A stretch of DNA of 64,000 bases, from assembly GCF_055900595.2 (NCBI RefSeq), contig NZ_CM148325.1; one strand, 5' to 3'. Position numbers: made by a program. Position 1 is the stretch's first letter, and the number at the start of each line of letters is the position of its first letter. Shown piece after piece: positions 13,520 to 16,500 of this stretch.

Positions 13520-16500
13520 TAAATAAAACAGGAGGCGAAGGTGCCTCCCGTTTTATTTTGTGCACTCAGTATCTACTGAATGAATACGGTTTCAGACATC
13601 GGCACCATACGAAGTAAAGTGTACTGTAAGCTGATTGCAGGCTAGCGTATCCTGATTAGTAAAAGCACACTAAAGGAATAGCTTGATGCAACTTACCAAC
13701 GAAGAACAAGTACAGATTGCTCGTATAAAAGAAAAAATCCCACGCATTGCCGCACTGGATCCTGAATGTAAGTTATTCGGTTCTGAAGGTTGGAAATATC
13801 AATGGCCGAAGCCTGCCAGCGAGGCGGAAATAGCTTCCTGGGAGAAAAAACATAGCGTCACTTTGCCACGGGAATATCGAATTTTTCTTCGCTATATCGC
13901 TAATGGCGGTCCGGCACATGCCTACGGTCTTGAATCTTTAGGCGGTACAGATATTTATGGCGATATAACAAAAGAAAGCCCTGTACCGCTTTATATGACG
14001 CAGCAGGATGTTGATGTGTTGAATGCTGGCCGTACAGAAGATGATGAAGAATATAGTTTTTTTGACGGCGCATTGACCATTCTCACCCTGGGATGTACTT
14101 ATGATATTTGCCTGGTGGTGACGGGGCAGTATCGCGGAAGGTTAATGCTGACTGATGGTGATGAAGATTATCCGTTTGATTTTATATATGATAAAAATTT
14201 CCTCAACTGGTATGAACGCTGGCTGGACGATTTTATTGCTGGCATGAGTATGAAGGGTTTCGATAGAAGTTTGCCAGGAACGCAAATTCAACTGCGTGAG
14301 TGGTTTTTAACTGAGAAAATCCCGGATTTACGTAGATCCATTTTATTCTCGCTATGCCGTTTTCCACAGATAGAACCCGAAACATTTGCCCTTTGGGAAC
14401 ATGTTTGCCACACAGAGAATGATAAAGAATTGTGTGAAGAGGCATTCATAAGATTACGCCAAAAAAAAGTTTCTTGTGCTGCAGATATTTTTCGACTCTA
14501 TTTTACAATGCCAGATGAATTACGTGATATTGCTATTAAAGATCTCCGTTTTGCCTGTAGAGATAGTGTGGTGAATATTGAGGATTATATTCATTCACTG
14601 TTAATAATAATGCCTGAACTTGACGATGACACTCTATCCTCAGCTGTCTTTGCTATACGAGAAACAGAGTATAATAAATATGATACTTTTCTGCCGCTTC
14701 TCGAACGTATCACTGATGACCGTCAGCAAACATTATTGTGGGCGATGAGTAAGGCGCCTGATTTCAATGAAAGCCGAGGATTCATTGAGTTGGTATTACC
14801 GCTTTTTGCATCATCAAAGATGGAGAATGTAAGGAAGGCTATTTTGTTGCTCATTGAAGTTAAAGATAATCGTATTCCACCATTGGTTGATGAAGCTGCA
14901 ACTCGTTTCCCTGAACTGACCATTTTACGAGAAAACTACTATCTCAGGACGTGGGGACATAAGCCATAAATTAATGGTTCAGAAATGATCTAACGCGGAG
15001 AAAAATATGATCAGGGAACATATTCAGCAAGCGATAAATAATAGGTTAGCCTTTGATGGCCCATTCAATGTTGTTCCTGAACCTGCAAGCACTGCGTTTG
15101 ATAGCCGGATCCCGACATTGAAAAACGGTGTCTGGCAGAAGGCCAGCCCTATGTTGCAGGCGCGTTTTGCACATTGTGGACGTTGGTTAAGCGCTACACA
15201 TGGAAGCTGGCTAAGTATAAGTGACATGGAAACGCTTTGGCAGGAACACATAGAAGATACGTTTCTTGATGAAATCAAAATGAATGCTGTAGCTTCAAGT
15301 GATAATTGGGATAACCATGCCTTGGGACTATTTCGTTCTCATCGCCTGTCACTTTTTGCCGGTAGTGATTACAGTTATGAAATGGTTTTTCTCCTTTGGC
15401 TAGATAGTACCGTTGAGCCAGAGGTCTGGGTTTATGACTGCAATGGGGAATCACGTTATAAAGATCTTAATGATTACCTGAATGCATATATTAATGATGA
15501 CGTAAGCGCCTGTGAGTGCTCCTGGCGAGTAGAATGAATAGCCCCCCTTGCCCCTTTGATCCACAAACCGCACATTACCTCGGCACAGTGCAAATCCACT
15601 ACACCCAAACCGCCTTCAACGCTGCCGTTAAGCATTATACCTGTTACATTAAAAAGCGTTTTAAAGGGTTTAAATGGGGAATCCGAACCGCTGGCTTATT
15701 GGCTATACTGCCCATGATCCCACAATGGTTGAAACCTTCTCATGACTTTAAACTCAACGCAATCAGTACGTTAATTCTTCTATTAATGTTGCCACTCCTC
15801 TTATCAATGTTCCTGTTAATCAGCAGAAGAATTAACGATTTTAAGTCAAAAACAAAGCAAGTTACTTTTACGAAACCCGTGCGTTATGCGTTTTATTTCG
15901 AGGGGATTGTTTTTTATGAATCTCATCAGCAGGGCATACTTCGCTGGGAAGATTTTTATAGCATTGAGTATGAAGAAGATTATTTGTGGCTTTTTCTGCA
16001 TTTACCGAAGAGTTGTCCCAGAGAAGCGACGAAAGCGTTTTGCGATATTTTCATTCCCACCAGTGCGATAAAAGCGCAGCCTGAACTGGATACGTTTTTT
16101 CGTGAAACACGCCACTCGCTGGATTATCTGTTTGTCCCGTTTAATTCTGACAGAAAATAACATATCCCCCGTATCTGGTGAAACGGGGGATTTCGTCGCT
16201 TAACTTATCGGATTACAGTTTTGGACCAGCCGCTACCAGCGCGGCACCCGCAGGGGTGTCGGTGTATTTATCGAAGTTGTCGATAAACAGTTTCGCCAGC
16301 GTTTCAGCTTTTTCCTGCCACTGTTCCGGAGAAGCGTAGGTGTTACGCGGATCGAGGATCTTAGTGTCTACGCCCGGCAGTTCAGTCGGGATCGCTAAAT
16401 TAAACATCGGCAGAGTGAAGGTTTCTGCGTTATCCAGCGAACCGTTGAGGATAGCGTCGATAATGGCGCGGGTATCTTTAATGGAGATACGTTTGCCAGT

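Follow-up and report, generated by a model that had tools for sequence, protein, structure and literature searches.

Gene A, at positions 13686 to 14969 of a 64,000-nucleotide segment of the Escherichia coli chromosome (the window; NCBI RefSeq assembly GCF_055900595.2, contig NZ_CM148325.1), encodes a 427-amino-acid (aa) protein in which a SUKH domain is joined to a HEAT-like α-solenoid. By analogy with described antidotes, we lean towards reading its product as an orphan immunity protein of the cytoplasm, encoded in a small polyimmunity locus that lacks a toxin. Our confidence in this is moderate and not higher because no toxin is linked to the family, the SUKH half is conserved, the solenoid is never independent and one sub-lineage is tied to an EndoV-like gene. 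Gene A already had a family-level annotation, and its architecture is common in databases; new here are the view of SUKH-HEAT proteins as a fixed family and the identification of an immunity-type cassette site between envZ and pckA.

Domain architecture of gene A

The open reading frame (ORF) runs from an ATG at 13686, with an AAGGA ribosome-binding site 9 nt upstream, to a stop codon that ends at 14969, and is exactly the coding sequence (CDS) annotated by RefSeq/PGAP. The gene and its parts are as follows.

13686..14969, + strand: gene A, 427-aa SUKH-HEAT protein (RefSeq WP_032303924.1, 'SMI1/KNR4 family protein')
13698..13757, + strand: family-specific N-terminal helix, residues 5–24 (helix in the AlphaFold2 model; near-invariant Q10, R13, I14 and K17)
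13812..14240, + strand: SUKH (SMI1/KNR4) α+β domain, residues ~43–185 (Pfam, Foldseek and invariant columns)
14283..14954, + strand: predicted HEAT-like α-solenoid, residues 200–423, seven helix-turn-helix pairs (AlphaFold2, family profile and Foldseek)

Two motif blocks were confirmed in the N-terminal half, LPREYRIFLRYIANGG at residues 60–75 and GCTYD...WYERWLDDF at residues ~136–183. Pfam-A matches the protein to SMI1_KNR4 (PF09346; residues 43–152, E 2.7e-6) and SUKH_6 (PF14568; residues 46–169, E 3.4e-5) and to no other family, and precomputed matches to the same two families are present on most gene A homologs. An AlphaFold2 (AF2) model built from a 24-sequence alignment (pLDDT 89.6, pTM 0.82) comprises an N-terminal helix (residues 5–24), an α+β domain that closes in a long helix (residues 172–184) and a 14-helix solenoid. 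In a Foldseek search of the PDB, this model matches the SUKH structures 3d5p_A (E 7e-3, TM score 0.59 on the target), YobK (2prv_B, TM 0.55) and Knr4 (8aj2/6qbq, TM 0.51), scores that are modest because the query was the whole two-domain protein. By sequence and by fold, gene A belongs to the SUKH superfamily, as an earlier note on this DNA had proposed for its N-terminal region from Smi1/Knr4-like motifs. The domain ends in an invariant helix, F172-L-x-W-Y-E-R-W-L-D181, which leads into the repeats.

Residues 200–423 form 14 helices in the model, arranged as seven pairs and mostly with pLDDT above 90. The top Foldseek matches of this solenoid are designed ARM/alphaRep proteins, the trunks of AP/COPI β-subunits, CpcE/F and YibA. 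The family profile matches designed alphaRep HEAT proteins with E values from 1e-17 to 1e-8, at best over profile positions 306–428, and E. coli YibA (1oyz) with E 0.016; the gene A model superposes on YibA with a TM score of 0.52 on the target. Precomputed HEAT_2 (PF13646) matches are found on many homologs. Taken alone, the C-terminal half of the E. coli protein has no significant Pfam (HEAT_2: none at E≤10), NCBIfam or PDB sequence match, and its HEAT-like character is suggested by the family profile and the predicted structure. The repeats appear degenerate in sequence in the enterobacterial clade. The stacked HEAT/ARM-like helices foreseen in the earlier note are thus borne out by the 14 modelled helices, the profile and the ARM/HEAT structural matches; compared with stand-alone SUKH immunity proteins, to which that note gave 150–200 aa, the protein is also about twice as large. 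No catalytic motif was recognised in gene A, including, as that note had said, in its C-terminal half.

A two-domain family conserved across phyla

The gene A sequence by itself finds 24 protein clusters. With a family profile the number rises to at least 134 clusters (90% identity), mostly of 440–490 aa, with members from Flavobacterium, Chitinophaga, Hymenobacter, Capnocytophaga, Agaribacter, Saccharibacillus and enterobacteria, and the family spans Proteobacteria, Bacteroidota, Firmicutes and Actinobacteria. A species scan, in which one genome for each of 100,044 species was searched with the invariant WYERWLD motif, confirmed 320 loci, that is, about 320 of the 100,044 species genomes. The 80 loci that were fetched contain 85 family ORFs, nearly all covering the whole two-domain profile, and the same full-length architecture appears in AFDB50 in Actinomadura, Deinococcus, Vibrio, Proteus, Gimesia and others. 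The fusion had been called atypical in the earlier note; it is instead widespread, with nearly all members of these clusters and species genomes at 440–470 aa and covering both halves.

The same note had suggested searching for other domain partners of the C-terminal half, and only SUKH was found as a partner. A HMMER search of residues 187–427 against 1.84 billion representatives gave eight matches, all from the same family or its fragments, and no other partner. Because the C-terminal half alone finds only this family, the SUKH-HEAT architecture is a fixed, ancient unit. SUKH-only relatives do exist, in Listeria, Paenibacillus and Serratia.

The most conserved positions of the family are the N-terminal helix, a GNGG loop, G147/G151, the junction helix F172-LxWYERWLD-181, F192 and G198, the conservation of the junction helix being partly favoured by the use of WYERWLD as the search motif. 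Within the N-terminal helix, Q10, R13, I14 and K17 each reach a conservation of at least 0.94 in 69 family members. The enterobacterial clade has W36, L133 and L135 at positions where 90–96% of the wider family has H, G and Q; the switch at residues 133/135 adjoins C137, which is 97% conserved, and we assign it no catalytic meaning. This clade-specific switch may mark a changed binding partner.

A codon alignment of gene A from E. coli with its E. albertii ortholog gives a ratio of nonsynonymous to synonymous substitution rates (dN/dS) of 0.19; within E. coli, substitutions are too few to interpret. The E. albertii orthologs are broken, either by a nonsense mutation at codon 212 or by a split into 278 and 153 aa, and the Xenorhabdus stockiae ortholog is also pseudogenised (broken copies at loci L014 10001-11287, L098 2175-3462, L099 2176-3462 and L089 9914-10786). 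Gene A has been under purifying selection yet is dispensable in some lineages.

A second SUKH-HEAT paralog, 39–48% identical, is present at another chromosomal site in some E. coli and in Superficieibacter (L006/L007 8001-9275; L016 10001-11284). It follows a DinG-like helicase gene, which we take to be yoaA, and in E. coli the next gene is of the RidA family, presumably yoaB, both names being assumed from domain content; the E. coli paralog at this place has 39% identity. The E. coli paralogs P0013–P0015 lack the otherwise conserved GCTY segment.

A strain-variable islet between envZ and pckA

The window carries the gene order tex/yhgF, greB, ompR, envZ and then pckA and yhgE, with gene A lying in a stretch of ~2.6 kb between envZ and pckA. 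The remaining features of this stretch are as follows.

13531..13558, + strand: intrinsic terminator of envZ (hairpin and T-run; a terminator-like match in the scan), left boundary of the islet
13560..16212, + strand: accessory islet, low in GC, whose three genes share one direction; it lies between the terminator of envZ and the stop codon of pckA
15007..15537, + strand: gene B, 176-aa Pfam-less protein, putative orphan homolog of an Rhs-toxin immunity protein
15534..16160, + strand: gene C (PGAP CDS), 208-aa predicted two-transmembrane protein with a weak YcxB-like C-terminal region
16166..16189, no strand assigned: GC-rich hairpin (CCCCCGT...ACGGGGG), read from the sequence, in the gap that separates the stop codons of gene C and pckA

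Sequence shared with genomes in which the site is empty runs up to the envZ terminator (13531–13558), and on the other side pckA converges on the islet with its stop at 16213. The GC fraction is 0.41 in the bin 14001–16000 and ~0.52 in the flanks. Genes A and B are separated by 37 nt, genes B and C overlap by 4 nt, and there is no toxin gene in the islet. Upstream of gene A, as far as the envZ terminator, the promoter scan gave no convincing sigma-70 promoter. The hairpin at 16166–16189 was not called by the terminator scan; an analogous hairpin is present in an alternative form of the islet, and the element is likely, from its sequence, to be a terminator brought by the islet.

Megablast of the islet stretch against 5,426 complete E. 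coli genomes recovered the full islet in 18 and the flanks in all, the remaining genomes having a short, empty envZ-pckA spacer. This site, a hot spot for cassettes, occurs in four allelic states. Most strains are empty, and the A+B+C state is found in this window and in E. albertii. The third state, from some draft genomes of E. coli/Shigella, starts with a 142-aa gene that is faintly HEAT_2-like (Pfam E 0.29 only), followed by B' (66% identity) and C' (57%). In the fourth, that of strain A30, gene B is deleted and the 142-aa gene is fused in frame to gene C, giving a product of 346 aa. These non-ABC cassettes lie at L095 5483-7197 and L002 3185-4225. The 142-aa gene, or the A30 fusion, was considered as a homolog of the gene A solenoid and rejected (hhalign probability 1.4%). 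The islet is co-directional, close-set, toxin-less and strain-variable, as described for polyimmunity loci, with genes A and C as putative immunity genes within it.

Genes B and C

Gene B has no Pfam, NCBIfam or PADLOC match. Its family (~175 aa) occurs in Escherichia, Pectobacterium, Dickeya, Brenneria, Lonsdalea, Corticimicrobacter and Caulobacter. In Pectobacterium parmentieri, a homolog with 56% identity (P0131; L013 8001-8525) lies 20 bp downstream of the gene for a 1,423-aa PAAR-Rhs protein, itself part of an hcp-vgrG-dcrB-rhs cluster; this is the canonical position of an Rhs immunity gene. The C-terminal toxin region of the Rhs protein (~125 aa) has no Pfam match, and together with the gene B homolog it is a candidate new toxin/immunity pair. 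Another homolog, in Corticimicrobacter, belongs to a small-gene cluster and has a SUKH_6 gene as its neighbour. Modelled with AF2 (pLDDT 89), gene B has only weak Foldseek matches, to Knr4 and 4iqn (E 0.05–0.25). A divergent SUKH domain in gene B was considered and not established: hhalign against the SUKH-HEAT family gave a probability of 0.2%, and there was no PDB sequence match.

Gene C has two hydrophobic helices, as judged by eye, and weak matches only, to YcxB (E 0.57), MASE8 (E 0.03) and PADLOC PycTM (E 0.0097). Its homologs are kept in every non-empty form of the islet. Searches of the A, B and C proteins against PADLOC-DB 2.0, PHROGs and NCBIfam returned nothing significant.

Genomic context of the family

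Context outside the islet was surveyed in 80 species loci with 10-kb flanks, in which ORFs were called, neighbours were clustered and large or recurrent neighbours were inspected. Copies in Klebsiella aerogenes and Superficieibacter follow dkgA, and those of Flavobacterium have PHO4 and DUF421 genes on either side. The family gene of Capnocytophaga cynodegmi sits inside a run of ~20 same-strand small genes that includes an Imm-NTF2 gene (weak match), and Saccharibacillus has a comparable array. In both Capnocytophaga and Saccharibacillus the gene directly upstream encodes a DUF7638/7639 protein; within the 80-locus set this neighbour was recovered only in C. cynodegmi. Large neighbours were inspected as possible toxins and rejected, these being an LPXTG/Big_1 adhesin, a protein sorted by the type IX secretion system, a NACHT protein, DhaK, ribosomal protein S1 and a sulfatase.

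The Serratia marcescens plasmid pAM01 carries a 208-aa SUKH-only copy (L100 7001-7627) that is 54% identical to residues 1–185 of gene A and ends right after WYERWLDD. It is surrounded by orphan cassettes of the CdiA type (DUF637 fragments, Ntox17 with two Imm31 genes, a deaminase and DUF596) and adjoins an IS21 IstB fragment and a group II intron. Other plasmid matches by tblastn are scattered and not toxin-linked; among phage records, tblastn found no full-length close relative, and the matches there are unannotated fragments with SUKH-only copies from Listeria.

Just one partner was found to be both tightly linked and recurrent, an EndoV-like gene of 169 aa (NCBIfam deoxyribonuclease V, E 1.1e-5), which precedes the family gene by 15–20 bp in nine genomes of Paenibacillus/Cohnella that are unlike one another in their outer flanks (L032, L050, L059, L063, L068, L071, L073, L074 and L078, ~9430-9975 in each). 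Its D, E and D catalytic positions look retained by eye, and the pair looks like a mobile two-gene module. To our knowledge, EndoV is not a described polymorphic toxin domain.

Proposed function of gene A

We favour a model in which gene A encodes a cytoplasmic, non-enzymatic binding protein. Its N-terminal helix and SUKH domain, joined through the invariant FLxWYERWLD helix to the seven-repeat HEAT-like solenoid, would act as a single composite binding module. We infer that the ligand is a toxin: by analogy, gene A would bind stoichiometrically to, and neutralise, a toxin domain delivered by a competitor's type VI secretion system (T6SS)/Rhs or contact-dependent inhibition (CDI) system. The toxin would probably be a nuclease, as for other SUKH immunity proteins. 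Genes A, B and C would together make up a miniature polyimmunity locus between envZ and pckA, gained by horizontal transfer, differing between strains and free of toxin genes.

Several observations are consistent with this model. SUKH and HEAT proteins are both documented immunity modules. The SUKH superfamily is the most widely used immunity domain against the nuclease toxins of polymorphic toxin systems (PMC3113570), and divergent orphan SUKH proteins were shown experimentally to protect Bacteroidales from a T6SS WHH nuclease by tight binding (bioRxiv 10.1101/2025.05.03.651265). On the HEAT side, Imm-HEAT immunity proteins are linked to Tox-REase-7 and Ntox34 (PMC3482391), and in E. coli K-12 the toxin RhsA-CT is neutralised by YibA, a HEAT protein whose gene follows rhsA (PMC3150448). 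Polyimmunity proteins tend to come from toxin-less, strain-variable loci of two or three genes (PMC3482391), and the islet, with its co-directional genes and short spacers, fits that description. One gene B homolog occupies an immunity position after a PAAR-Rhs T6SS effector and another lies beside a SUKH gene; the Capnocytophaga and Saccharibacillus members are in same-strand small-gene arrays, and the Serratia plasmid copy is in a CdiA-type orphan toxin/immunity array. Gene A has neither a catalytic motif nor a PADLOC or NCBIfam match, and its low dN/dS, combined with independent breakage in E. albertii, is expected of a conditionally useful accessory gene. UniProt, moreover, gives an immunity-domain name to the C-terminal fragment from E. 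albertii.

Other results weigh against this model. No polymorphic toxin adjoins a full-length family member in the 90-odd loci inspected (78 species and ~12 other contexts), and many copies, such as those of Flavobacterium, Klebsiella aerogenes and Listeria, are singletons amid housekeeping genes. The HEAT half is never found without this SUKH domain, which argues against a simple join of two independent immunity modules. Mean pairwise identity is 0.50 in the SUKH half and 0.33 in the HEAT half, and such strong conservation of the SUKH half across phyla, with several invariant surface-type residues, is unusual for immunity proteins engaged in an arms race. The pAM01 copy may be placed incidentally, given the insertion-sequence and intron debris around it. 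Finally, the UniProt name of the 153-aa C-terminal fragment from E. albertii, 'Immunity protein 30 domain-containing protein', was not reproduced: Imm30 (PF15565) has no match at E≤10 for the E. coli protein in Pfam-A, and for the fragment itself the precomputed Pfam entry is empty and NCBIfam also gave nothing. Because the toxin adjacency that marks SUKH immunity function was not found for the family, in which links to toxins are indirect, the functional claim draws on context and analogy.

Alternative explanations

The alternative that survives best, which we regard as possible but unlikely, is that the SUKH-HEAT protein is an adaptor or inhibitor with a conserved partner, binding and regulating an endogenous protein rather than an incoming toxin. 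It could take the form of an intracellular toxin-antidote-like pair that restrains an EndoV-like nuclease, the E. coli partner being encoded elsewhere, and the close spacing of the two genes in nine Paenibacillus/Cohnella genomes with differing flanks argues for such a pair. However, the link is confined to one closely related sub-lineage, whose EndoV-like proteins are ~85–90% identical (by eye, from the alignment), and a hidden Markov model of the EndoV-like protein matched no further ORF in the 80 loci, the gene being absent from the enterobacterial ones. An endogenous partner would also suit the strong conservation of the SUKH half and N-terminal helix across phyla, the many singletons in housekeeping contexts and the apparently vertical retention within Flavobacterium, and the eukaryotic SUKH proteins Knr4/Smi1 and FBXO3 are adaptors (PMC3113570). 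Against this, the E. coli clade has replaced residues that are at least 90% conserved elsewhere (W36 for H, L135 for Q and L133 for G), which argues against one universal conserved partner, and the E. coli gene lies in a rare, low-GC accessory islet with an Rhs-immunity homolog and not in a regulon. The earlier note had suggested that the fusion may indicate a sensor or adaptor role rather than simple immunity. The toxin-less islet, the Rhs-adjacent gene B homolog, the immunity-like arrays and the CDI array lend that suggestion no support; what survives of it is that no cognate toxin was found and that the SUKH half is unusually conserved across phyla.

A related proposal, which we consider improbable, is that SUKH-HEAT proteins are not antidotes to interbacterial toxins but the conserved inhibitor or sensor subunit of an undescribed intracellular conflict module with an EndoV-like nuclease as the ancestral partner. 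In this view the nuclease would be caged by the solenoid and released by some trigger, for example phage infection or DNA damage, and solitary copies, like those of E. coli and Flavobacterium, would be kept as decoys or anti-nuclease guards.

It is very unlikely that the three genes form an unrecognised system of conflict with phages or mobile elements, with the SUKH-HEAT protein as sensor and gene C as membrane effector. The small, rare, low-GC and strain-variable islet in a chromosomal hot spot would fit such a system, gene C has its weak PycTM-like PADLOC match (E 0.0097), and some relatives lie near integrase and restriction-modification fragments. Yet neither A nor B has a significant PADLOC match, and the three genes are not co-conserved outside Escherichia: A is found by itself in Klebsiella, Superficieibacter and Flavobacterium, among others, B follows an Rhs toxin with neither A nor C present, and the only relatives in phage records are the SUKH-only Listeria copies.

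Least probable of all is that gene A is a decaying passenger with no current function in E. coli: the interrupted orthologs in E. albertii and Xenorhabdus, the rarity of the islet and the deletion-fusion derivative in strain A30 would fit decay, but PGAP calls a SMI1/KNR4 CDS in 18 of 18 E. coli genomes at 98.9–100% DNA identity, the three E. coli copies that were re-checked are full length, dN/dS against E. albertii is 0.19, and the full-length family is conserved in hundreds of species.

If gene A is instead an orphan immunity protein, envZ-pckA would be a cassette hot spot at which E. coli and E. albertii swap toxin-less immunity genes, and these genes could determine which cell wins when bacteria meet in the gut with T6SS/Rhs or CDI systems. 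A fixed composite antidote of SUKH-HEAT type would then be present in hundreds of species, both soil and host-associated. Two Pfam-less families, those of genes B and C, are flagged as candidate immunity proteins, the first with a concrete Rhs toxin in Pectobacterium. Current understanding is not overturned by these results, which extend the catalogue of SUKH architectures.

Comparison with known systems

The SUKH-HEAT fusion is not named in the searchable text of two surveys of these domains (PMC3113570 and PMC3482391). Like Knr4/Smi1 and FBXO3, gene A joins its SUKH domain to another interaction domain; unlike them, it has no F-box or disordered hub regions and belongs to a bacterial accessory islet, and there is no sign in gene A of a signalling role such as theirs.

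The closest likeness of the N-terminal half is to SUKH immunity proteins such as YobK of B. subtilis and I2 of Bacteroidales, with which it shares the α+β fold and a significant Pfam match. In common with these proteins, the family is predicted to be cytoplasmic and non-catalytic, and it occurs in toxin-less immunity-type arrays and as orphans. In contrast, gene A is about twice as large and has a family-specific N-terminal helix and an obligate seven-repeat solenoid; its family has no adjacent toxin at the loci examined, and its SUKH half is unusually conserved across phyla.

The C-terminal half resembles Imm-HEAT proteins and YibA (1OYZ) in being a predicted α-solenoid of the HEAT_2/PBS-lyase type. 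YibA and Imm-HEAT proteins stand alone and are encoded directly after their toxins, whereas the gene A solenoid is always joined to SUKH.

In combining SUKH with a structurally unrelated domain of immunity type, within a toxin-less and strain-variable locus, gene A is like the 'polyimmunity proteins' of Zhang et al. 2012 (PMC3482391), among which SUKH has at least eight unrelated immunity domains as fusion partners. Those proteins are built from shuffled domains that also occur independently, whereas gene A is a fixed two-domain unit that is most conserved at its junction, and for this reason it resembles one composite binder more than two antidotes in tandem.

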